DNA from: Elainellaceae cyanobacterium
Lineage (GTDB): Bacteria; Cyanobacteriota; Cyanobacteriia; CAZCXK01
Direction of reading: 5' to 3'
Length of the DNA: 47,735 bases
Assembly (NCBI GenBank): GCA_051117555.1
Contig: JBNPEG010000154.1
Location: 1-47,735, forward strand
Shown: piece after piece, positions 2,966 to 47,735 of the stretch
How positions within the stretch are numbered: position 1 is the stretch's first letter
How the letters are laid out: every line of letters starts with the position of its first letter
Made by a program: the position numbers and the translations under genes
The notes under the pieces: model-generated
Told to the model about the DNA's origin: nothing
Database searches by the model: none
Seen by the model: only the letters and a program-made list of their open reading frames with translations

Positions 2966-4012
2966 ATGGCTGATTTAGAATCCAATCTCATTCGACTTTA
3001 TCTTCCGCTCGTTGCATGGGTTGGGTTAGGGGTCGTGCTAGGAATGAAGCTCCCGGTGCAGGTACCGTTCTATCTGGGTAAGTTTTTGTTTTGGATAGGC
3101 GTACCCATCAGCATTTTGACATTTTTGCGCCAAGCGGATTTATCGGAGTCAGTTTGGGTAGTTCCGGCGATCGCTTGGATTGCCATTCTGTTAGGGGCTA
3201 GTTTGGCATGGTCTTGGATGATGATCACGGGTAGGGTGAAGCGTTCATCTCATCTTTCTAGGCAGCGATCGCCCTCTCAGGATGGTATTGAAGATGCTGA
3301 GGATGCTAGCAGCGTTGCGGATGAGTCGTCCCATCATCTGACTCATTCCGCTCATAAACCCTGGAGCTTACCGACTCAGGGAAGTTTTATGCTCTCGGCC
3401 ATGATTGGCAATACGGGCTACTTGGGATATCCTGTCGTACTAACCCTGATGGGGCCTAAATTTTTCGGGTGGGCAATTTTTTATGATCTCTTAGGTAGCA
3501 CACTAGGGGCATACGGATTGGGCGTTATTCTTGCAGCTCGATTTGGAACCAGTTATCAAAACATGGGGCAGCTTTTTCAAGCCATCCTCATCAATCCAGC
3601 ATTCTGGAGCTTTTGGGCAGGGTTGGGGTTTCGTCAAGTGCCCCTACCGCAGCCCGTCGAGCGCGGTTTATTGGGCATTGCTTGGGCGATCGTAGCCGCA
3701 TCACTACTTCTGCTAGGGATGCGGCTTAGCCAAGTTTCATCGTGGCGAAATGCCCAAAAAGCAGCGATTAGCCTAAGCATCAAGATGCTCATCGTGCCAA
3801 TGGCGTTAGGACTATGCCTGCCAATCATCGGGATCACGGGCTCTGCGCGGCTGGTCGTGATTTTGCAAATGGCGATGCCTCCTGCCTTTGCCACTCTGGT
3901 TATTGCTGAAGCATACAATCTCGATCGAGGGCTCACCGTCACTGCTCTGGCGATTGGCTCAATCGGGATTTTAGCCACACTGCCCATCTGGCTATGGCTA
4001 TTTGGGACGTAA
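2966..4012 (+). CDS. AEC (auxin efflux carrier) family transporter
   Basis: GNTGYLGYP and QMAMPPAF motifs, about 10 TM segments; ATG at 2966 chosen. Confidence 0.88.
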   Translation: MADLESNLIRLYLPLVAWVGLGVVLGMKLPVQVPFYLGKFLFWIGVPISILTFLRQADLSESVWVVPAIAWIAILLGASLAWSWMMITGRVKRSSHLSRQRSPSQDGIEDAEDASSVADESSHHLTHSAHKPWSLPTQGSFMLSAMIGNTGYLGYPVVLTLMGPKFFGWAIFYDLLGSTLGAYGLGVILAARFGTSYQNMGQLFQAILINPAFWSFWAGLGFRQVPLPQPVERGLLGIAWAIVAASLLLLGMRLSQVSSWRNAQKAAISLSIKMLIVPMALGLCLPIIGITGSARLVVILQMAMPPAFATLVIAEAYNLDRGLTVTALAIGSIGILATLPIWLWLFGT

Positions 4013-5907: not shown

Positions 5908-7998
5908 ATGGAACAACTCATGCAGGTCTTTTCGGGCAGTCCTAGCCCGATCGTTGCGTTTACGATTCTGCTGCTGGTGATTCTGATTGTTCCGCCTTTT
6001 TTTGAACGCCTAAGATTACCTGGGTTGGTCGGTCTTCTATTTGCAGGGGTCGTCTTGGGATCAGACGGCTTAGGACTATTAAGTGCCGAATCTGAAACGA
6101 CAAAACTGCTTTCGGACATTGGCAAAATTTATCTCATGTTTGTCGCCGGACTTGAAGTTGACTTAGGAGAATTTCGCAAAACTCGTACGCGTTCGTTAGG
6201 ATTTGGCTCGGCAACGTTTTTGGTGCCTCTGATTGTAGGCACCCTGATCGGATTGCACTTTGAGTTTGGCTGGAATGCATCCGTCCTGATTGGCTCTCTG
6301 CTGGCATCTCATACCCTGTTGAGCTACCCCATCATTCAACGCTTGGGTGTGGTTCGCAATGAGGCCGTTACGGTCACAATTGGGGCGACGATTTTTACGG
6401 ATATTGCTGCGCTGCTGGTCTTAGCTATTTGCGTATCCATTCAGGATGGTGAGTTCTCGATTGCGAGTTTGACCGTTCAGCTATTGGCTCTTGTGATATA
6501 TTCGTTCGTGGTCTTGGTTGGCTTTGACTGGGCAGGAAAAGAATATTTTCGGCGCACGAGTGAAGAAGAGAGCAATCAGTTTTTGTTTGTGCTTCTTGCG
6601 GTTTTTCTGGCCGCTGTCGGTGCTCAAGTCATTAATGTCGATAAAATCGTCGGTGCATTTCTTGCCGGTCTTGCGGTAAATGATGTGGTAGGGCATGGCC
6701 CCGTTAAAGAGAAAGTAGAATTTGTGGGCAGTACGCTCTTCATTCCGTTTTTCTTTGTGGGTACTGGGTTGCTTTTAGATGTGCCTGCATTTGTACAAAG
6801 TCTAACGACGGAATTTGACCTCACCTTCGCCATTGTCATTGGTTTATTTGTTAGCAAGTTTCTTGCAGCGCTCATTGCCAAGGTTATGTTTCGCTACAGT
6901 TCAGCAGAGTTGTTCACCATGTGGTCACTCTCCTTGCCACAGGTCGCTGCGACATTGGCTGCCGCATTGGCGGGGCTGGAAGCCGGATTGTTGAGCGAGT
7001 CAGTATTCAACAGCGTCATTGTGCTAATGTTAGCCACCTCATTATTAGGCCCCCTGATTACCGAACGGTTTGCGGTAGGCTTATCAGTTCCTAAACCCAA
7101 CTTAGACGTGGTCGCTCATGACGATTGGTGGATTGGTGAAGACGATGGGTCTGGCGATCTCTCAGAACCAGAGGGCGGTCATCCGTTTACGGTTTTAGTG
7201 CCCATTTATAATCCGCTCACTCAGCGGTATCTGATTGAGATGGCCTCTCTCTTGGCGAGACATGAATCTGGAATCATCGTGCCGCTTTCGATCGCCAAAG
7301 CTCAAGTGCATCCGGACGAACCCCAGCTTAATGGACTGCTCCGACAGAGCCAACGGTTGCTTCAGAGGGCTTCGGATATTAGTCGAGAATTTGATATCCG
7401 AGCAGAACCCCGAATTCGAATCGATGACGATATTTCCAATGGCATTAGCCGCACGGCTCGCGAAGTCTATGCCAATCTCATTGTCATGGGATGGAGTGAA
7501 ACTACTGGATTGAAGGCGAGGCTATTTGGCAATTTAATTGACAGCGTGTTTTGGGCCTCTCACTGCCCGGTTGCGGTTGCCCGACTTTTAGACGACCCGA
7601 TTAACCTGCATCGCATTTTGGTGCCCGTTAAAATTATCACGCCGCAAACAATCCGGACGATTCGGTTTGCCCAATTTTTTGTGGATACCAATCAAGCGTC
7701 TCTGACCCTGCTTCATGTGTGCGATCGCCGTACACCCGCCGAGCAAATCAAAGACTTCGAAGCAGAGCTCGCTCAGCTCTTTGCGCAATCTGTCTCCCCC
7801 AACAATTTCACAATCAAAACCATTCGCCACGATGATGTTGCAAACGTGATTCTAGATGTCTCAAAGGAATTTGACATGGTAATCTTGCGATCAATGCGTC
7901 GACGCACTGCCGGAGGTTTAGCGGTCAGCGATGTAACGACTCAGGTGATTCGATCACTAACGGGATCAATGATTCTATTTGGCGAACCCCATTCGTAG
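5908..7998 (+). CDS. Cation:proton antiporter (CPA2) with C-terminal universal stress protein domains
   Basis: About 12 TM segments with ATIFTD and GAFLAG, followed by two USP-like domains (VLVPI...LIVMGW...CPVAV; ILVPV). Confidence 0.88.
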   Translation: MEQLMQVFSGSPSPIVAFTILLLVILIVPPFFERLRLPGLVGLLFAGVVLGSDGLGLLSAESETTKLLSDIGKIYLMFVAGLEVDLGEFRKTRTRSLGFGSATFLVPLIVGTLIGLHFEFGWNASVLIGSLLASHTLLSYPIIQRLGVVRNEAVTVTIGATIFTDIAALLVLAICVSIQDGEFSIASLTVQLLALVIYSFVVLVGFDWAGKEYFRRTSEEESNQFLFVLLAVFLAAVGAQVINVDKIVGAFLAGLAVNDVVGHGPVKEKVEFVGSTLFIPFFFVGTGLLLDVPAFVQSLTTEFDLTFAIVIGLFVSKFLAALIAKVMFRYSSAELFTMWSLSLPQVAATLAAALAGLEAGLLSESVFNSVIVLMLATSLLGPLITERFAVGLSVPKPNLDVVAHDDWWIGEDDGSGDLSEPEGGHPFTVLVPIYNPLTQRYLIEMASLLARHESGIIVPLSIAKAQVHPDEPQLNGLLRQSQRLLQRASDISREFDIRAEPRIRIDDDISNGISRTAREVYANLIVMGWSETTGLKARLFGNLIDSVFWASHCPVAVARLLDDPINLHRILVPVKIITPQTIRTIRFAQFFVDTNQASLTLLHVCDRRTPAEQIKDFEAELAQLFAQSVSPNNFTIKTIRHDDVANVILDVSKEFDMVILRSMRRRTAGGLAVSDVTTQVIRSLTGSMILFGEPHS

Positions 7999-34941: not shown

Positions 34942-35033
34942 TGTAGCAATCCCAAATGGGTTGTGAGTGGTGGGACGGGCGGCGCCCGCCCCACCACTCA
35001 CACACAATTCGCGAGCAATTTAGGATCGCTATA
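34942..35033. repeat. Roughly 92-bp MITE-like repeat, inverted copy of 37257-37348
   Basis: TAGCAATCC...GGATCGCTATA termini; GC-rich internal hairpin TGAGTGGTGGG...CCCACCACTCA. Confidence 0.85.
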
Positions 35034-37173: not shown

Positions 37174-37256
37174 CGGGCTTGCCACACGTTCAACGTCCTA
37201 ACGCAAGAGCGTACGGCGATAGATTGAGAGGCAGGCATAACAGAATATTGAGCATA

Positions 37257-37348
37257 TATAGCAATCCTAAATCGCTTGTGAATTGTGTGTGAGCGGTGGG
37301 GCGGGCGGCACCCGCCCCACCGCTCAAAACCCATCTGAGATTGCTATA
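37257..37348. repeat. Roughly 92-bp MITE-like repeat, inverted copy of 34942-35033
   Basis: TATAGCAATC...GATTGCTATA termini; internal hairpin TGAGCGGTGGGGCGGG...CCCGCCCCACCGCTCA. Confidence 0.85.
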
Positions 37349-39555: not shown

Positions 39556-40515
39556 ATGCCTATGGTTCGTGTTAGAGCACCAGACCTTCCTCAGACTGGC
39601 TCTTGGTTGAATTGTGATCAATCTGTATCGTTGAAAGATCTGCGGGGATACGTCGTTATTCTCGATTTTTGGACGTATAGCTGTATTAACTGCCTGCACG
39701 TTATTCCGGATGTCAGGTATTTAGAACACAAGTATGGCGATCGCCTGGTTGTCATCGGCATTCACACCGCCAAATTTGACCATGAGCACACTCTAGAGAG
39801 TGTTCGGCAGGCAATTGCCCGGCATGGAATTATGCATCCCGATGGTGGCAGAGCACTCGATGTTGATCTAAATTCCCCGTGGGATTTGGTAATAGTAGAT
39901 GCAATGATTTATGTCGCAATGGCAGGAGCGCATCAAATCTGGGCAATTGACCGTGACGGCACGAGTCAAACATTGATTGGCACAGGAGCAGAATTTTGCG
40001 TTAATGGAACACGTGATACTGCTGCATTTGCTCAACCAAGCGGGACTACTACTGATGGAGATGACCTGTTTGTAGTAGATAGTGAAACAAGTTCAGTTCG
40101 CCGAATTAAACGAGGAGAAAGTCCGACTGCTCACACGGTCTGCGGCAGTGGTCAGCTATTTGAGTTTGGCGATCGCGATGGGATTGGATCACATGTGCGC
40201 TTACAACACTGCTTGGGACTGGCCTATGGGGCAGGTTACCTGTGGCTTGCCGATACCTACAACCACAAAATTAAACGAGTGCATCCGGTAACGGGAGACT
40301 GCCAGACTCTATGCGGGATGAGCAAAGCAGGCTTTCGAGACGGCATCGGTCTAGATGCTGCTTTTTCAGAACCCTCTGGATTAAGCTACGCCGACCATCA
40401 TCTGTATGTTGCAGATACCAATAATCATGCCATTCGAATGATTGATCTTGATACGTTGAAGGTGACAACGCTGCACAGTCCGACCCTGTGTTCACCCTAT
40501 GTCTGCCAGCCTTGA
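39556..40515 (+). pseudogene. Thioredoxin-like + NHL-repeat protein with an apparent in-frame internal deletion
   Basis: DFWTYSCINC thioredoxin start; the domain stops at IMHP and jumps directly to LNSPWDL NHL blades. Confidence 0.65.
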
Positions 40516-40572
40516 GCGATTAGTGCCTCTGCAATCTACCCCTCTACTCTACTTTTCTCTCTCTTGCGCGAA

Positions 40573-40718
40573 GCGGCAATTGAAATTGCGTCTACACGAA
40601 CGAAACCCGCCTGCGCGGGTTAAGGAAATTGTCTGTGAGGATGGACATAGTCTATGTAGCCGCCGATTTTAATCGGACGGCACAAGCGAATGTTCTGGGT
40701 CTGATGGCGATCGCCCCA
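40573..40718 (+). repeat. 146-bp direct repeat, left copy
   Basis: Identical to 45265-45410; contains the hairpin AACCCGC...GCGGGTT and ends just after a HIP1 site. Confidence 0.95.
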
Positions 40719-40957
40719 AATATTACCCTCGATCACGGTTGCACTCCTTGTGAACCTAGATCCTTCATCCCCAACGCAAGATAGGAATGTGAGAACACAA
40801 TAAAATAGTATCGCGGTTTTAACCGCCAGCATTCAGAGTCTGGTCAGACAGGGGATATGCACAGGTTAAGGATATCTAAATTTTTTTTGGACTGGACAAC
40901 AATTTAGGAGTTCTTGATTTACCCTGGGGTAAAGAAATTAGTGAACCCAAGAGTTTT

Positions 40958-41293
40958 ATGTCAGACGAATATATTTGGATTGTGACCGATGACGCTGAAC
41001 CTTCTGATATCGAAGGTCAGCGGGGCTGGGGAGAGGAGGTTCGCAAGCGGCTGAATACGGCAGTGCAAGTTCCAGTTTCTCTGCTAGAGCAAAACATGAA
41101 CCGCTTTTTGCAGTTTGTCGGGCGACTGTTTAAGCAGGTTGATCAGCAAATCGGTGCTGATTCAGATATGCAACTAGATGAGGTGGAATTGTCGGTCGAA
41201 ATTAGCGGCAAGGGTGAAATTAAGCTGATTGCTGGTGCAGAAGGGAAAGGAGCGATTACTCTAAAGTTTAAGCGTATCGAAACGTCAGCGTAG
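40958..41293 (+). CDS. Pepco-like (peptidase co-occurring) small protein
   Basis: LDEVELSVEISGKGEIKLI...GAITLKFKR pattern; stop codon is 3 bp before the caspase gene. Family assignment is from recall. Confidence 0.7.
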   Translation: MSDEYIWIVTDDAEPSDIEGQRGWGEEVRKRLNTAVQVPVSLLEQNMNRFLQFVGRLFKQVDQQIGADSDMQLDEVELSVEISGKGEIKLIAGAEGKGAITLKFKRIETSA

Positions 41294-41296
41294 GAA

Positions 41297-43264
41297 ATGG
41301 CACAAAACTGGGCGATCGCCATCGGCATTAATCAATATGAGCATCTTTCGCAGTCGTCACATCTAAGATATGCCGTGCGTGATGCAGAGCTGATGCGTGA
41401 TTTTTTGTGTCAGACTGCTAGCTTTCCTGAGAAGAATGTGTTGTTGTGTTCTGATGAGTCTCGCCCTATCGGGTCTATTTTCACCCGCCCGTCACGGTCA
41501 AATTTAAGGCGGTTATTGCGCGAAGAACTGCAGCAGGCGCACGGAGCTGACAATCTTTGGTTCTTCTTTGCCGGACATGGCATGGCAGGACGAAATGGCG
41601 ATTACTTCTTGCCGATAGATGGCAATCCCAATGATTTGGAAGATACGGCTGTTTCTGTCGATTTTGTGACCGAGTATTTGCGCCGCTGTCAGGCCAAAAA
41701 TGTGGTGCTGATTCTTGATATGTGTCGCAATGAAGGTAGAAATGATAGTCGAGATATCAGCGTTAGTGTAGGTAAGCAAACCATCAAATTGGCCCGCGAG
41801 CGGGGCATGATTACGATGTTTTCCTGTAGCCGAGGGGAGCGATCGTATGAGATTCCTGAGCTAGAGCAAGGGGCGTTTACCCACAGCTTGGTAAATGGGC
41901 TAAAGCAGCACACGATTTTGCGACAGCTCGATGACTATTTGAGGCGAGAGATTCCAGGCTTACGGCAACGCTATGCCAAACAAATCCCGATTCCGCGAAT
42001 TATTCCTGAACCGGGATGGAAATATGATGCGCCTCTGCTGCCTGGATATGCTACCCAATCAGACGTAGGGCAGTTGATTGAGCGAGCAACCCAAGCAGAA
42101 CTCGACGAAGACTTTGAACAAGCCCGTCAGTTTTGGTGGCAGGTGATTGATGCAGGGTCTCAGTCTGAGCGGTCAACAGCCCGGAATGCACTAGATCGAA
42201 TTAGAAGGAAGGAGATGGCGAGGATTCAATCCGTGCCGTCTGCATCGCCACCACCATCAGTTTCTCCTGTCGGAAGGGATATAGGCGAAACCATATCGCC
42301 ACCCAATCCCCAACCTGAAGAAAAAACTACCAACCCAACAGCAACAGACCCGTTTCGTTTGCAAGATTTTCCTTTTAAGACTGCACGAATTGTATCTGTG
42401 CGCAAAGAGGGAGGATTGCTGGGTTTTGGTGGGCAAGCGGTGTGTGACATAAAGCGAGAAGGCTGCACTGCTAAATGCTTTGTTGAGCCGTTGGGCAATG
42501 GTGTCACGCTAGAGATGGTGCAGATTCCAGGAGGCACATTCATGATGGGGTCTCCTGAATCTGAAGATGGATATAAAAGTGAACGACCTCAGCATTCAGT
42601 AACGGTCAAACCATTTTTCATAGGTAAGTTTCCTATTACACAAGCACAGTATGAAGCAGTGATGGGAAACAATCCTGTGACGCAATATGATAGTGACCGC
42701 TTTGTTGCGCCTGATAAGCCCGTCGTTGGCGTGAGTTGGAATGATGCGATCGCCTTTTGTGAACGCCTGTCTCAACAAACTAAAACCGAGTATCGTTTGC
42801 CGAGCGAAGCCGAATGGGAATATGCCTGTCGTGCTGGAAATGAAACGCCGTTTCATTTTGGTGAAACAATCACGACTGACCTAGCAAATTATCGAGGAAC
42901 GGATTGGGAATATCAGGGGACAACGTATCCTGGCAATTATGCAAATGGGCCGAAAGGAGAATATCGAGAAGAGCCAACGCCAGTCGGTAGTTTTGCTGCT
43001 AATGCGTTTGGGCTGTTTGATATGCATGGCAATGTGTGGGAATGGTGCCTTGATCATTGGCATGAAAATTATCAAGATGCACCCACAGATGGAAATGCTT
43101 GGATCGAAGGCGGAGATAAGTCTCTGAGGCTGCTGCGGGGCGGTTCTTGGCCCTACGACCCGTGGGACTGTCGCTCAGCGGACCGTGTCAGGCTCAATGC
43201 AGACTTTAGGAGCGACGACTTCGGGTTTCGTGTTGTGTGTTCTGTGCCGAGGTCTCTTCCCTAG
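41297..43264 (+). CDS. DGR target protein: caspase (peptidase C14) domain, Pro-rich linker and FGE-sulfatase/CLec domain with C-terminal VR
   Basis: AIAIGINQY, FFFAGHG and LILDMCRN (His-Cys dyad); then IPGGTFMMGS, RLPSEAEWEYACRAG, GLFDMHGNVWEW and RGGSW...GFRVV. Confidence 0.95.
   Translation: MAQNWAIAIGINQYEHLSQSSHLRYAVRDAELMRDFLCQTASFPEKNVLLCSDESRPIGSIFTRPSRSNLRRLLREELQQAHGADNLWFFFAGHGMAGRNGDYFLPIDGNPNDLEDTAVSVDFVTEYLRRCQAKNVVLILDMCRNEGRNDSRDISVSVGKQTIKLARERGMITMFSCSRGERSYEIPELEQGAFTHSLVNGLKQHTILRQLDDYLRREIPGLRQRYAKQIPIPRIIPEPGWKYDAPLLPGYATQSDVGQLIERATQAELDEDFEQARQFWWQVIDAGSQSERSTARNALDRIRRKEMARIQSVPSASPPPSVSPVGRDIGETISPPNPQPEEKTTNPTATDPFRLQDFPFKTARIVSVRKEGGLLGFGGQAVCDIKREGCTAKCFVEPLGNGVTLEMVQIPGGTFMMGSPESEDGYKSERPQHSVTVKPFFIGKFPITQAQYEAVMGNNPVTQYDSDRFVAPDKPVVGVSWNDAIAFCERLSQQTKTEYRLPSEAEWEYACRAGNETPFHFGETITTDLANYRGTDWEYQGTTYPGNYANGPKGEYREEPTPVGSFAANAFGLFDMHGNVWEWCLDHWHENYQDAPTDGNAWIEGGDKSLRLLRGGSWPYDPWDCRSADRVRLNADFRSDDFGFRVVCSVPRSLP
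43129..43251 (+). repeat. DGR variable region (VR)
   Basis: Aligns without gaps to 44934-45056 with 18 mismatches, every one opposite a TR adenine. Confidence 0.97.
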
Positions 43265-43333
43265 CCCTTTTCTCTTTTGCTCTTTTACTCTTTACCCTTC
43301 TTTTCTCTTGCGCGTAGCGCTAAAAATTTTTTT
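43265..43333 (+). promoter_or_regulatory. Post-VR pyrimidine tract and GCGC-GTA-GCGC mini-hairpin, candidate retrohoming cis element
   Basis: C/T-rich tract, then CTCTTGCGCGTAGCGCTAAAAATTTTTTT. DGR targets typically have a hairpin downstream of the VR. Confidence 0.55.
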
Positions 43334-43451
43334 GCCTTTAAGAGACATAACGTAACGGTTTGCTTTGATCAGGCTCAAAATGTTCAGTCGCGATGAGATA
43401 TTGGTTCTTATATCCGTTCAACACCAAATCATCTAAAAACATCATTACGTT

Positions 43452-43796
43452 ATGGACGATTTACCTGTTATCCAGAAAACCTATGACCTGATCAAGTGGT
43501 ACGTCCCCATTCTCAACCGATTGCCCAAAAACCACAAGTTTTTGTTAGGCGACAGAATGGTGACCGGGCTCTATGATTTGCTCGAAGGGTTGATTCAAGC
43601 TCGCTATTCTCAAAACAAACTGACTCGACTAGAAACCCTCAACAGCCACCTTGATATCTTACGCCATCAAACTCGCCTGCTTCTCGATTTTGAATTAATA
43701 AAACCAGAGCGATATCAGCACATTGGGCAACTCATAGACTCCGTTGGCACTGATTTGGGGGGCTGGATTAAACAACAGCGTAAAAAACCATATTAA
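43452..43796 (+). CDS. avd: DGR accessory variability determinant Avd
   Basis: 114-aa helical protein ([13 protein letters not shown]...[12 protein letters not shown]...LGGWIK) lying between target and RT. Confidence 0.92.
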
Positions 43797-43817
43797 ACAA
43801 CAGCGTAAAAAACCATC

Positions 43818-44876
43818 ATGAAACGCTACGGCAATCTCTGGCCTCAAATCATCGACTTTGAGAATATCTTACTTGCTGCTCGCAACGCTCAAAAAGGTAA
43901 ACGGTTTCGAGACAATGTGCTGGCCTTCAACTACAACCTGGAACATGAACTCAACCAGATTCAACGCCTCCTCCAAACCAAAACCTATCAGCCCGGAGCT
44001 TACCGCACCTTTCAAATTCGAGAACCCAAACCTCGCACAATTTCAGCGGCTCCCTATCGAGATCGAGTAGTGCATCACGCCCTCTGCAACGTGATCATGC
44101 CTATCTTGGAGCGTTCTCTAATTTTCGATACTTATGCAAACCGTTGGGGCTTTGGCACCCACCGCGCCCTTCATCGCTTTACACAATTTGCTCGGTCTAG
44201 TCGATATATTCTTCAGTGCGACATTCGTAAATACTTTCCCAGCATTGATCATGAGATCTTGAAAACCCTGCTACGTTGCAAGATTAAATGCCTGGATACT
44301 CTCTGGCTGATTGACACGATCATCGACAACAGCAACGAACAAGAACCTGTCATTGTTCACTTTCCAGAGGATGAATTACTCACACCACTACAACGCCGCC
44401 GAGGGCTTCCCATTGGCAATCTCACCAGTCAATGCTTTGCCAATATCTATCTCAGCAACTTTGATCACTTCATCAAAGAACAACTCAAGGTCAGCAAATA
44501 TCTACGCTATGTCGATGACTTTGCGCTATTTTCTGACGACCGCATGTTTCTTACTGAAGCAAAAGCCATAATTGAAAACTACTTGGTAGACTTACGTCTC
44601 AAGATTCACCCCGTCAAAAGCCAGCTTTATAAAACAGAAATCGGTGCTAACTTCGTAGGATTTCGCGTGTTTCCAAACCATATTCGAGTTCGAAGTGAGA
44701 ATTTACGACGATCTCGACGACGATTGCGACGATTGAAACATGAGTACAAAATCAATCAGGTTAGCTTTACAACACTGACCCAATCGATCCAGAGCTGGGG
44801 GACACACCTCAAACATGCAGATAGCTGGCGTCTACGCGACGATATTTTTACAACCTTGATTTTTACGAATGCATAA
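43818..44876 (+). CDS. DGR reverse transcriptase
   Basis: [33 protein letters not shown] (DGR-type GxxxSQ) and YVDD; 352 aa with no maturase or endonuclease extension. Confidence 0.96.
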
Positions 44877-44933
44877 CTTTTGCTCTTAATTGGCTATTCT
44901 TCAGCTATTCTTTCGATTGGGACAGGTTGATCT

Positions 44934-45201
44934 GCTGCTGCGGGGCGGTTCTTGGAACAACAACCCGAGGAACTGTCGCTCAGCGAACCGTAACAGGAAC
45001 AATGCAGACAATAGGAACAACAACAACGGGTTTCGTGTTGTGTGTTCTGTGCCGAGTACTCTTCGCCGTCAGAGCTGATGGATGGGAATTCATCAGGAGT
45101 ACATGAAGAGTCCAGACCTGTTCCTGTGAGGGCAGTAACGCCTTCCGAAAATAAACCAGAGCCAGATATCTTGGTAAGTTCGCTGAAGAGTTGTCTGGCT
45201 C
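44934..45201 (+). ncRNA. DGR template repeat (TR, 44934-45056) and structured 3' spacer
   Basis: AAC-rich copy of the VR; downstream stems CTGATG...CATCAG, GAGGGC...GCCTTC and GAGCCAGA...TCTGGCTC. RNA ends are not known. Confidence 0.9.
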
Positions 45202-45264
45202 CATTAAAATATTCCTTATATTCCATCAAAAGCTCAGATCCCAGACTTTTTGATGAAAAAGCCG

Positions 45265-45410
45265 GCGGCAATTGAAATTGCGTCTACACGAACGAAACCC
45301 GCCTGCGCGGGTTAAGGAAATTGTCTGTGAGGATGGACATAGTCTATGTAGCCGCCGATTTTAATCGGACGGCACAAGCGAATGTTCTGGGTCTGATGGC
45401 GATCGCCCCA
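45265..45410 (+). repeat. 146-bp direct repeat, right copy
   Basis: Identical to 40573-40718. Confidence 0.95.
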
Positions 45411-45416
45411 CGTCGA

Positions 45417-45731
45417 ATAGTCATCATTCACGATCCGATGGCAATCATTCACCACCCGATAGTCATCATTCAATGTCTGATAGTCATCATTCAATGTCTG
45501 ATAGTGAATGTTCAATGTCTGATAATGAATGTTCAATGTCTGATAATGAATGTTCAATATCTGATAATGAATGTTCAATATCTGATAATGAATGTTCAAT
45601 GTCTAATGGTGAATGTTCAATGTCTGATAATGAATGTTCAATGTCTGATGGTGAACGTTCAATGTCTAATAGTGAATGTTCAATGTCTGATGGTGAACGT
45701 TCACTATCGGATAGCGATCGTTCACTATCCG
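45417..45731. repeat. 21-bp tandem repeat, 15 units, degenerate at both edges
   Basis: Consensus ATA(A/G)TGAATGTTCAATGTCTG; no unique spacers. Confidence 0.95.
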
Positions 45732-46039
45732 ATGGCCATCATTTCATATTCGAGTAAGAAAATCTTATATTGCGCATGGATTGATCACCATCCAATATCA
45801 AATTTCCACCACCGGATATCAAATGAAGTCGGTCGAATATAAAACCGAGACCAACGAGATTAGAAAATTTAATATCGCCAGGCAAACATTTCAATTCGTT
45901 TGGCAAATCAAGACCAACGGATATGAAATCAAAACCAGCTCACATCAGTTTTCTTAATTCCGGGATGCAACTTGCGCGATCGGCGGATGGAGTGATGGGG
46001 TAATCAAATCATCTCCATCACTCCCAGACTCCATTACTT

Positions 46040-47005: not shown

Positions 47006-47614
47006 ATGAATGCTGATGTCACCTCAAAATCAATCTTGCTGCTGGCTGCGAACCCCAAGGGGACGGGAAGCTTGCGTCTGCAAGAAGAAGAGAGAGAAAT
47101 TAAGGAGCGTCTCCGTCTAGCTGGGTATGGCAAAGTACCGATCAACTCGACTGGGGCTACTCGTAGCAGAGATATTCAACAAGCGATGCTGGACTTTAAG
47201 CCACAGGTCGTTCATTTCACAGGTCATGGTATAGGGAAAGATGGTTTGGCTTTTGAGGATGTGGCAGGACATCTTAAGCTGATTGACTCAGATGCGTTAG
47301 CTAACCTATTCAAACTTTTTTCTAATCATGTAGAGTGCGTTGTTCTGAATGCCTTCTACTCAGAGTTTCAAGCTGAGGCGATCGAGCAACATATTGATTA
47401 CGTGATTGGGATGAATCAAGCGATTGGCGATCGGGCAGCAATTGAATTTTCTGTCGGTTTCTACACGGCATTAGGGGCTGGAGAATCAATCGAGTTTGCT
47501 TATGAACTGGGTTGTAATGCAATCCAGCTAGAGGGTATTCCGGAACACTTAACTCCAGTCCTGTTCGTAAAAAAAAAGGAATCTGAAAACGTAGAGTTTC
47601 AAAATTTTGATAGA
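47006..47614 (+). pseudogene. CHAT (caspase-clan) domain gene truncated by IS insertion; catalytic Cys replaced by Phe
   Basis: ILLLAANP...LRLQEE.REI, VHFTGHG, and VLNAFYS where LNACxS is expected. The last residues LISCTW* come from the IS terminus. Confidence 0.8.
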
Positions 47615-47735
47615 CTCATATCTTGCACCTGGTAATTTGAACTTCAATTCCCTGCTGTTGCAACAAGGAACGTTTTCGTTCGATATCGGCTAACAACAGT
47701 GTCACTAAAACATCTGCCAAAGCGGCTTCTAGCAC
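47615..47735 (-). mobile_element. Right end of the same IS family: transposase C-terminus and 16-bp terminal IR
   Basis: CTCATATCTTGCACCT at 47615-47630; the minus frame reads VLEAALADVLVTLLLADIERKRSLLQQQGIEVQITRCKI* with the stop inside the IR. Confidence 0.85.

Follow-up and report, generated by a model that had tools for sequence, protein, structure and literature searches.

The 47,735-nucleotide contig JBNPEG010000154.1 of an Elainellaceae cyanobacterium (assembly GCA_051117555.1), which we call the window, carries on its forward strand a compact cassette, 40958-45064: a gene for a Pepco protein, a gene for a C14 caspase fused to an FGE-sulfatase/C-type-lectin-fold (FGE/CLec) sensor, and then the parts of a diversity-generating retroelement (DGR), namely a bAvd gene, a reverse transcriptase (RT) gene and a template repeat (TR). 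The sensor ends in a variable repeat (VR), and the bAvd and RT genes are situated between VR and TR (Table 1). We think it probable, though well short of assured, that the cassette is a self-diversifying module of sensor, protease and executioner, in which a cytosolic orthocaspase with a DGR-diversified sensor would license Pepco and so act as a suicide switch against invaders. The original prediction, made from the letters alone, had singled out a Pepco-like gene paired with a caspase whose ligand-binding domain is hypervariable; that observation is real, and was confirmed as correct in all the particulars that could be tested.

The hypervariability of the sensor can be read from the comparison of VR with TR. 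Over 131 nucleotides the two differ at 20 positions, 19 of which are adenines of the TR; the TR contains 34 A, and the chance of such a concentration is about 1e-10 (binomial). The CLec domain thus carries a genuine VR, as had been claimed. Thirteen codons differ between the two repeats, all in residues 619-642 and including 11 of the 11 AAC codons, and VR spans residues 611-655, the C-terminus of the protein. Among the FGE genes of the genome, the TR matches this VR alone. The Avd protein scores 137 bits against NCBIfam model NF033474, whose equivalog cut-off is 80, and the RT has the motifs IGNLTSQ at residue 199 and YVDD at residue 231; I/LGxxxSQ is the hallmark motif of DGR RTs. Judged by their sequences, Avd, RT and TR are intact in the window, and the VR bears an adenine-specific pattern of substitutions.

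The diversified protein begins directly with the caspase domain; a helix-like segment then precedes a linker with 13% proline over residues 301-400, in agreement with the helical segment and Pro-rich linker of the original description. Its Pfam matches are C14 and FGE only, with none to STAND NTPase, vWA or AAA. The highest Kyte-Doolittle mean over 19 residues is 0.73 for this protein and 0.63 for Pepco: neither has a hydrophobic stretch fit for a signal peptide or a membrane helix, and the earlier statement that the target shows neither holds. The gap between the stop of Pepco and the start of the caspase-FGE gene is, as reported there, 3 nucleotides.

The caspase looks active, a prediction that rests on the invariance of H94, C143, D29 and D141 and on a model of the fold. 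The His/Cys dyad, already described as intact-looking, lies in the motifs FAGHG (H94, codon 41576-41578) and LDMCR (C143, codon 41723-41725); H94 is conserved in 31 of 31 aligned homologues and C143 in 30 of 31, the exception being the truncated L017, and both are invariant, together with D29, D141 and R144, in a 28-row alignment (A3). A phmmer comparison aligns the N-terminal half of the domain with the yeast metacaspase Yca1, setting FFAGHG on YSGHG and LRYAVRDA on LRGCINDA, which places D29 on the Asp of the Yca1 ‘IND’ motif. The AlphaFold model of residues 1-265 has a predicted local distance difference test (pLDDT) of 88.5 and a predicted template modelling score of 0.90; its best match in the PDB is the MALT1 paracaspase (E 6e-12), followed by the Arabidopsis metacaspases AtMC9 and AtMC4, then Yca1, with animal caspases behind. 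Proteases of family C14B cleave after Arg or Lys, with an S1 pocket made of one Ser and two conserved Asp; orthocaspases are without the p10 domain and calcium-independent, and paracaspases are activated by dimerisation (PMC9626678). The Asp pair of the pocket is retained as D29 and D141, residues assigned by motif position and not by superposition of structures. The sole low-confidence loop of the model (pLDDT < 50), residues 150-155 after the catalytic Cys, is Arg-rich (NEGRNDSRD) and varies in length among homologues; for these two reasons the caspase might process itself there.

The small gene is a true Pepco: its product matches all of Pfam model PF24393 (positions 1-112 of 112) with E 1.7e-30 and 106.2 bits, against a cut-off of 27, and scores 105.6 bits in the search of the whole genome. 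Trypco1 gives a weak match of 17.9 bits, under its own cut-off. The C-terminus reads L-K-F-K-R, then a 5-residue tail, IETSA; R106 (codon 41273-41275) is the final position of the Pfam model, and L102, K103, F104 and R106 (L-K-F-x-R) are invariant in the 33 sequences of alignment A2, from which L011, with a frameshifted tail, is excluded. Over the three sets of loci described below, F-x-R is conserved in 135 of the 139 C-termini that are complete (L011, L046, L175 and L178 deviate), and the tail beyond its Arg varies from 1 to 13 amino acids, with a mode of 4-5. A second basic position, Arg22 in the window protein and R/K22 across the alignment, is also kept in 33 of 33 sequences, within a G-Q-[RK]-G motif in a loop of low model confidence. 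The AlphaFold2 model of the monomer (pLDDT 75.9) has a beta-helix-beta-helix-hairpin layout; its strands, by reading of the sequence, alternate hydrophobic and polar residues (VELSVEIS, AITLKFKR), as expected for the wall of a barrel. A Foldseek comparison of this model with the PDB gave no match below E = 1; its insignificant top rows include hairpins of beta-pore-forming toxins, which we do not count as evidence. Prediction of a complex between the caspase domain (with alignment A3) and Pepco (with A2) scored 0.00, which is evidence neither way.

The pairing of Pepco with a caspase is strongly conserved across cyanobacteria. Three sets of loci were surveyed: set 1 holds 32 cyanobacterial loci from a scan of one genome per species with the window Pepco; set 2, 80 loci kept out of 151 relatives from a metagenome scan with an alignment; and set 3, the best 40 by E-value of 70 Pepco places listed from an even sample of the phylum, in which the Pepco profile matches 56 of 401 evenly drawn genomes and 35 of 155 genera. 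The sets overlap and are not de-duplicated; as an example, L043, L050, L052, L053 and L060 repeat L014, L019, L018, L017 and L024. A caspase lies directly downstream of Pepco at 30 of the 32 loci of set 1, at 61 of the 80 loci of set 2, and, on the same strand, at 35 of the 40 loci of set 3. The two exceptions of set 1, L003 and L009, are contigs that end about 630 nucleotides after Pepco, with small genes of DUF2283 type in between; Pfam finds C14 in 29 of 29 downstream open reading frames (ORFs) tested, and L021 has a remnant only. The 19 loci of set 2 without a caspase directly downstream comprise 5 where less than 200 nucleotides of sequence follow, 4 with CHAT proteases, one where a C14 gene comes after a TIR gene, one with a TIR gene, one with a WD40 protein and, for the rest, loci with no large ORF nearby. 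The exceptions of set 3 are L165, L169 (a contig of 879 nucleotides), L175, L182 and L187. Beside the DUF2283 genes behind Pepco at the contig ends of L003 (3571-4160, with a fragment of a PBECR2-like nuclease) and L009 (5381-5847), another lies between Pepco and caspase in L007 (5298-5528); they may be a toxin-antitoxin-like insertion.

What varies is the domain that follows the caspase. Among 29 caspases of set 1, the second domain is GUN4 in 15, FGE in 7, nSTAND_NTPase5 in one and DnaJ_C in one; in the remaining 5, a second domain is absent or the sequence is cut short, by truncation or where the contig ends. A further such pair is carried by pOSC7112.01, a conjugative plasmid of Oscillatoria nigro-viridis PCC 7112 (NC_019763.1), where a Pepco (PF24393, E 8e-30, C-terminus KLKFKR-TTTNS) lies directly upstream of a C14-SAVED protein whose caspase is 39% identical to that of the window. 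A CD-NTase gene follows, with E1- and E2-like genes alongside, so the Pepco/caspase-SAVED pair occupies the effector slot of a CBASS operon. One Pepco-orthocaspase pair thus stands behind varied C-terminal domains, as would a constant output unit with an exchangeable input.

A Pepco has been studied in one published system. According to Evans et al. 2025 (bioRxiv 10.1101/2025.11.14.688446), SsPepco of Streptomyces subrutilus forms heat- and SDS-resistant beta-barrels of 9-10 subunits; the trypsin-like SsAvs4 clips a 2-kDa C-terminal tail after Ile97; and SsPepco ending exactly at Ile97 kills Escherichia coli, while deletion of SsPepco abolishes toxicity, for which an amphipathic helix is needed. 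That Pepco is at once substrate and death effector, a pore-forming beta-barrel activated by the neighbouring protease, and the partners of Pepcos are described as proteases of Ser or Cys type that carry a fused sensor, which is FGE, STAND or peptidoglycan-binding. The earlier suggestion that the small protein is a cofactor, inhibitor or substrate of the caspase can thus be sharpened. The accompanying statement that nothing of the kind had been characterised experimentally falls for the principle of a protease acting on Pepco, and stands for caspase-linked or DGR-diversified versions, on which our literature search found no experiment.

The mechanism that we propose would run as follows. A VR variant would bind a ligand in the cytoplasm, most plausibly a molecule of a phage or other invader, and binding would bring caspase domains together and activate them, as paracaspases are by dimerisation. 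The caspase, presumably Arg/Lys-specific, would then cleave the co-transcribed Pepco, by homology to the one Pepco tested. The cut would most likely fall after the invariant Arg106, releasing the 5-residue tail, a site that we favour because of the analogy with the C-terminal cut of SsPepco; alternatively, it might fall in a disordered loop, behind basic residue 22, which is likewise invariant. Cleavage would turn a pre-assembled oligomer of Pepco beta-barrel type into a membrane pore, and the pore would kill or arrest the cell, that is, produce abortive infection. Pepco and caspase would be the constant output, and the C-terminal domain of the caspase the part that is exchanged.

Within the sampled loci, the window is the sole intact case that is complete in cis, and versions with an intact DGR in cis are rare. 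The flanks examined at other Pepco loci (up to 6-7 kb per side for sets 1 and 2; 4 kb upstream and 10 kb downstream for set 3) yielded neither an RT nor a full Avd: 0 of 32, 0 of 80 and 0 of 40. The combination of Pepco, caspase-FGE and an intact cis DGR is absent at the 152 other Pepco loci of these overlapping sets. A DNA search with the whole cassette over 40 relatives found none that carries it as a unit, and none near-identical with which the VR could be compared; among sequencing runs, two contain small shares of the stretch, both stored as contigs, and no RNA run is listed. From the other side, no caspase or Pepco is present at 11 DGR loci of the same clade, with cyanobacterial RTs 59-68% identical to that of the window. 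Most targets at those loci are preceded by ORFs sized like the VMAP-C and AAA_5 genes of contig C8, the one locus where the upstream ORFs were named by Pfam.

Contig C8 of the same genome carries a second DGR (L123:216-7996), with VMAP-C, an AAA_5 ATPase, a 911-amino-acid FGE target, Avd, RT and TR; it also holds an FGE-only target of 304 amino acids. The C8 TR has a further match in the VR of an FGE gene on contig C177, where the differences number 22, 16 of them at adenines. Contig C180, 3 kb long, carries a second Pepco-caspase-FGE pair. Considered as a second DGR target, this paralogue was rejected: it has 43 mismatches to the window TR, 20 of them at A, and 37 to the C8 TR, 14 of them at A, and the 448 nucleotides downstream of it are without a TR.

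Traces of diversification are more widespread than intact DGRs. A scan for local TRs covered 51 FGE loci (7, 21 and 23 in sets 1, 2 and 3), almost all of them Pepco-linked caspase-FGE genes, and at 8 of the 51 a TR-like copy lies about 200-230 nucleotides past the stop of the target; the differences are biased towards adenines, and neither RT nor Avd lies within 4-10 kb (Table 1). These eight pairs indicate that DGR diversification of Pepco-linked caspase-FGE proteins is recurrent. With the window RT as query, full RTs are found elsewhere in two of the genomes with such pairs (G002 and G075), RT fragments only in two others (G137 and G407), and no match in G001. The RT loci elsewhere in the genome of L010 were tried as the source of its TR and rejected: their own TRs mismatch the L010 VR. 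The RT-less pairs may have their TRs served in trans, as ‘satellites’, or may be fossil DGRs. The caspase-FGE genes of L174 and L182 are immediately followed by what is left of an Avd, 25 residues (7864-7938) and 60 residues (3688-3867) at 67-68% identity, a trace at both Pepco-linked targets of a cis-DGR since lost.

Several points weigh against the suicide switch proposed above. Present-day activity of the DGR is predicted from intact parts only, and the sister loci are decayed, with their RT-less pairs, Avd remnants and, in two genomes, nothing but RT fragments. The only experiments on a Pepco concern the trypsin-linked Streptomyces protein, cut after Ile, in a preprint that is un-reviewed (10.1101/2025.11.14.688446). 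The tail of 1-13 residues, with its mode of 4-5, compares with about 20 in SsPepco, and this short tail, together with the second invariant basic site at R/K22, leaves the cleavage site uncertain. At the Ser position of the S1 pocket, which is Ser in most relatives, the window protein has Ala92. The surrounding 37 kb are housekeeping genes and form no defence island; PADLOC, which is without a Pepco model, recognises no system in the window. Finally, GUN4, not FGE, is the commonest sensor of the sister modules. As Kaur et al. 2020 (PMC7159879) take GUN4 to sense tetrapyrroles, the output unit may serve the control of physiological stress or cell death, and the module is not necessarily dedicated to immunity.

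The last point leads to an alternative that we regard as unlikely, in which the Pepco-caspase pair is a physiological cell-death or stress switch, acting for instance in filament differentiation, photo-oxidative stress or ageing, and the DGR adjusts how a ligand, endogenous or environmental, is recognised, a ‘regulatory pathway tuning’. Besides the 15 GUN4 domains against 7 FGE and the position of the cassette outside any defence island, it can call on the interpretation of orthocaspase-CLec proteins as regulatory (Vallota-Eastman et al. 2020, PMC7517822) and on the Discussion of Evans et al., which raises stress-response roles for related modules. However, the same pair serves as effector in an operon of CBASS, which is known to act against phages, its other partners (STAND, TIR, CHAT) are domains typical of conflict systems, and hypervariation of a binding site is hard to square with a fixed endogenous ligand. 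It is also conceivable, though quite improbable in our view, that the DGR is a fossil: the VR would have been diversified formerly and would now be frozen, and the module, if it works, would be a sensor of fixed specificity. The decay of the sister loci just listed is what one would expect then, as is the C180 paralogue that matches no TR; yet Avd, RT (with its catalytic motifs) and TR of the window are full-length and uninterrupted, and non-adenine differences between VR and TR amount to 1 in 20, which argues against long neutral decay. There is, at last, the very unlikely case that Pepco is no toxin and instead holds the caspase or sets its position, as an adaptor, chaperone or inhibitor, the real substrates being other proteins of host or phage. 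Trypco1/2 are listed among ‘adapter domains’ by Doré et al. 2024 (PMC10907252), and Kaur et al. 2020 describe them, in the text available, only as trypsin-co-occurring domains; a very short C-terminal tail is odd as a pro-peptide, and an effector-less caspase that still protects is described by Evans et al. Against this, SsPepco alone, truncated at its cleavage site, kills, its deletion abolishes toxicity, and in the proteins studied here the basic motif is invariant, as are the amphipathic, barrel-like strands.

Table 1. Features of the cassette, related repeat arrays, the CBASS-like operon and the RT-less VR-TR pairs. Positions refer to the window unless a locus or accession is named; res, residues.
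Feature	Position	Strand	Remarks
146-nt direct repeat, copy 1	40573-40718	not assigned	240 nt upstream of Pepco
Pepco gene, 111 aa	40958-41293	+	PF24393
DGR target gene, 655 aa	41297-43264	+	C14 of orthocaspase type; linker helical and rich in Pro; FGE/CLec sensor
Caspase (C14) domain, res 4-231	41306-41989	+	Pfam Peptidase_C14 (PF00656), E 2.2e-21
FGE-sulfatase/C-type-lectin-fold sensor domain, res 406-647	42512-43237	+	PF03781, E 4.2e-62
VR	43129-43259	+	diversified codons res 619-642 = 43151-43222
Avd gene, 114 aa	43452-43796	+	PF22296 (bAvd), E 1.5e-20
DGR RT gene, 352 aa	43818-44876	+	PF00078 (RVT_1), E 5.2e-19
TR	44934-45064	+	85% identical to VR
146-nt direct repeat, copy 2	45265-45410	not assigned	200 nt downstream of TR
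Tandem array of ~110-nt repeat relatives, contig C81	L121:1987-3527		82-89% identical, period ~135 nt
Tandem array of ~110-nt repeat relatives, contig C75	L122:3674-4216		82-89% identical, period ~135 nt
CBASS-like operon, L196	NC_019763.1 212981-216560		Pepco and C14-SAVED, DncV-like CD-NTase (AGS_C domain), E1/E2
RT-less VR-TR pair, L004			11/15 differences at TR adenines
RT-less VR-TR pair, L010			11/14 differences at TR adenines
RT-less VR-TR pair, L071			13/16 differences at TR adenines
RT-less VR-TR pair, L092			13/18 differences at TR adenines
RT-less VR-TR pair, L114			14/20 differences at TR adenines
RT-less VR-TR pair, L158			12/15 differences at TR adenines
RT-less VR-TR pair, L159			11/20 differences at TR adenines
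RT-less VR-TR pair, L160			17/21 differences at TR adenines

The cassette of the window belongs to two known kinds at once, the protease-activated Pepco modules and the DGR-diversified orthocaspase-CLec proteins, and published work now goes far to explain its components. With SsPepco-SsAvs4 it shares a PF24393 gene immediately upstream of a sensor-fused protease and the logic of sensor, protease, Pepco cleavage and pore, for the window a prediction only; it differs in having a C14 orthocaspase of predicted Arg/Lys specificity, the L-K-F-K-R motif with a 5-residue tail, no NTPase and a sensor rewritten by a DGR, where the Streptomyces system has a trypsin-like protease, a STAND/Avs4 sensor of the phage portal, and a cut after Ile97 that frees a tail of about 2 kDa. 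The orthocaspase-CLec variable proteins listed among cyanobacterial DGR targets, and read as regulatory (PMC7517822), have the same N-terminal orthocaspase-like peptidase and C-terminal CLec domain with VR, also in filamentous cyanobacteria, but the available text mentions no small gene or toxin upstream, whereas the window target is paired with Pepco. VMAP ternary conflict systems have DGR-fed FGS/CLec domains, FGS being read there as the effector (PMC7159879); Doré et al. read DGR-diversified CLec targets as sensors, with nearby Trypco ‘adapter’ and peptidase effector domains, and describe what DGR-diversified proteins do, and what benefits they bring, as elusive (PMC10907252). The cassette resembles these VMAP and MoxR-vWA systems in the clade of its RT (the C8 RT is 64.5% identical), in the order FGE target, Avd, RT, TR, and in a diversified antigen sensor feeding a peptidase effector; it differs in lacking MoxR ATPase, vWA and VMAP genes, sensor and protease being one polypeptide. 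The EACC1-caspase modules of Evans et al. likewise join a cysteine protease to a small pore-forming pro-toxin activated by cleavage, and a DGR association is mentioned, in the text available, for the EACC1 family only; their effector family is unlike Pepco, and the window caspase stays below the cut-off of NCBIfam ‘caspase_w_EACC1’ (78 bits against 140). The CBASS operon of pOSC7112.01, annotated computationally, shares the Pepco-caspase output pair, the KLKFKR motif and the 5-residue tail, and differs in its input, a CD-NTase-fed SAVED sensor of cyclic nucleotides in place of a DGR-diversified lectin fold. New here are the explicit link between Pepco and a DGR, a putative cleavage motif of Arg type, the relative in a CBASS operon and the TR-VR pairs that lack an RT; our literature search found no text tying Pepco to a DGR, though it did not cover Nicastro et al. 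2023 (NAR), which Evans et al. cite with Kaur et al. 2020 on naming Pepco and which could describe such a link.

The value of the cassette is mainly that of a compact, testable model for DGR-diversified intracellular sensors. Candidate systems for the role of DGR-diversified proteins inside cellular hosts are mostly large multi-gene assemblies (MoxR, vWA, STAND); here, two proteins for a predicted lethal read-out, with Avd, RT and TR, could be rebuilt in a laboratory strain. This would give a direct test of whether a randomised lectin-fold domain can serve as an antigen receptor that triggers proteolytic activation of a pore, and would tell whether caspase-linked Pepcos are cut at Arg, as against the Ile of trypsin-linked ones. 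The Pepco-orthocaspase pair appears as a portable output unit common to DGR, CBASS, GUN4 and STAND inputs.

The boundaries of the cassette are marked by a repeat. The two 146-nucleotide copies that bracket it, from Pepco to TR, are 100% identical and in direct orientation; elsewhere in the genome, copies of no more than 89% identity form tandem arrays on contigs C75 and C81. One of these arrays sits behind the TR of a TIR-FGE gene on C81 (L121:4114-5445, minus strand), which has its own RT-less VR-TR pair, with 14 of 17 differences at adenines. The segment 44941-45374 of the window, comprising TR, spacer and repeat, is 75.7% identical over 470 nucleotides to the region behind that gene, a similarity indicating that the repeat belongs to a conserved element flanking TRs; the identical copy upstream of Pepco suggests a recent recombination or block transfer. 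A single relative of the repeat, of about 115 nucleotides and 81% identity, is found beside an FGE gene in a genome of the same genus (L126:1202-1310). As RNA, the repeat folds slightly better than shuffled sequences (z = -1.95). Synteny with genomes of the same genus breaks off near 40115-40230, where contigs of G007 and G006 end, and is taken up again on different contigs. Going further, one may conjecture that the cassette is the smallest complete ‘anticipatory immune receptor plus executioner’ known to date in bacteria: a DGR-programmable lectin-fold sensor and an Arg-specific caspase with one pre-assembled 111-amino-acid pore protein as its only substrate, a diversifier in cis and no NTPase or chaperone, the whole a 4.7-kb unit that may move as a block and whose RT may serve RT-less satellite TR-VR pairs such as that of the C81 TIR-FGE gene. 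We put this forward tentatively, and are inclined to doubt that it holds in full.

Rfam at its gathering threshold has no match across the window. Over 40400-45500, a promoter and terminator scan finds fewer sites than in shuffled sequence, and no inverted repeat lies directly 3' of the VR. The neighbours of the cassette are an S9 peptidase, a thioredoxin-like/NHL protein and, 1.6 kb downstream, a stand-alone CHAT protein of 209 amino acids (47006-47635; Pfam E 9.8e-09, PADLOC ‘chat’ 5.6e-19). Directly after the second 146-nucleotide repeat, 45385-45800 is occupied by a tandem array in which a 21-nucleotide unit recurs at least 15 times, partly palindromic and with several open frames (Ser/Asp/Glu/Cys-rich or Ile/Val/Gln-rich); a similar array is found on contig C76 of G007. 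Farther upstream, an element of about 93 nucleotides at 37256-37348, inverted at 34944-35033, looks like a miniature inverted-repeat element, with dozens of copies on both strands in two genomes of the same genus.

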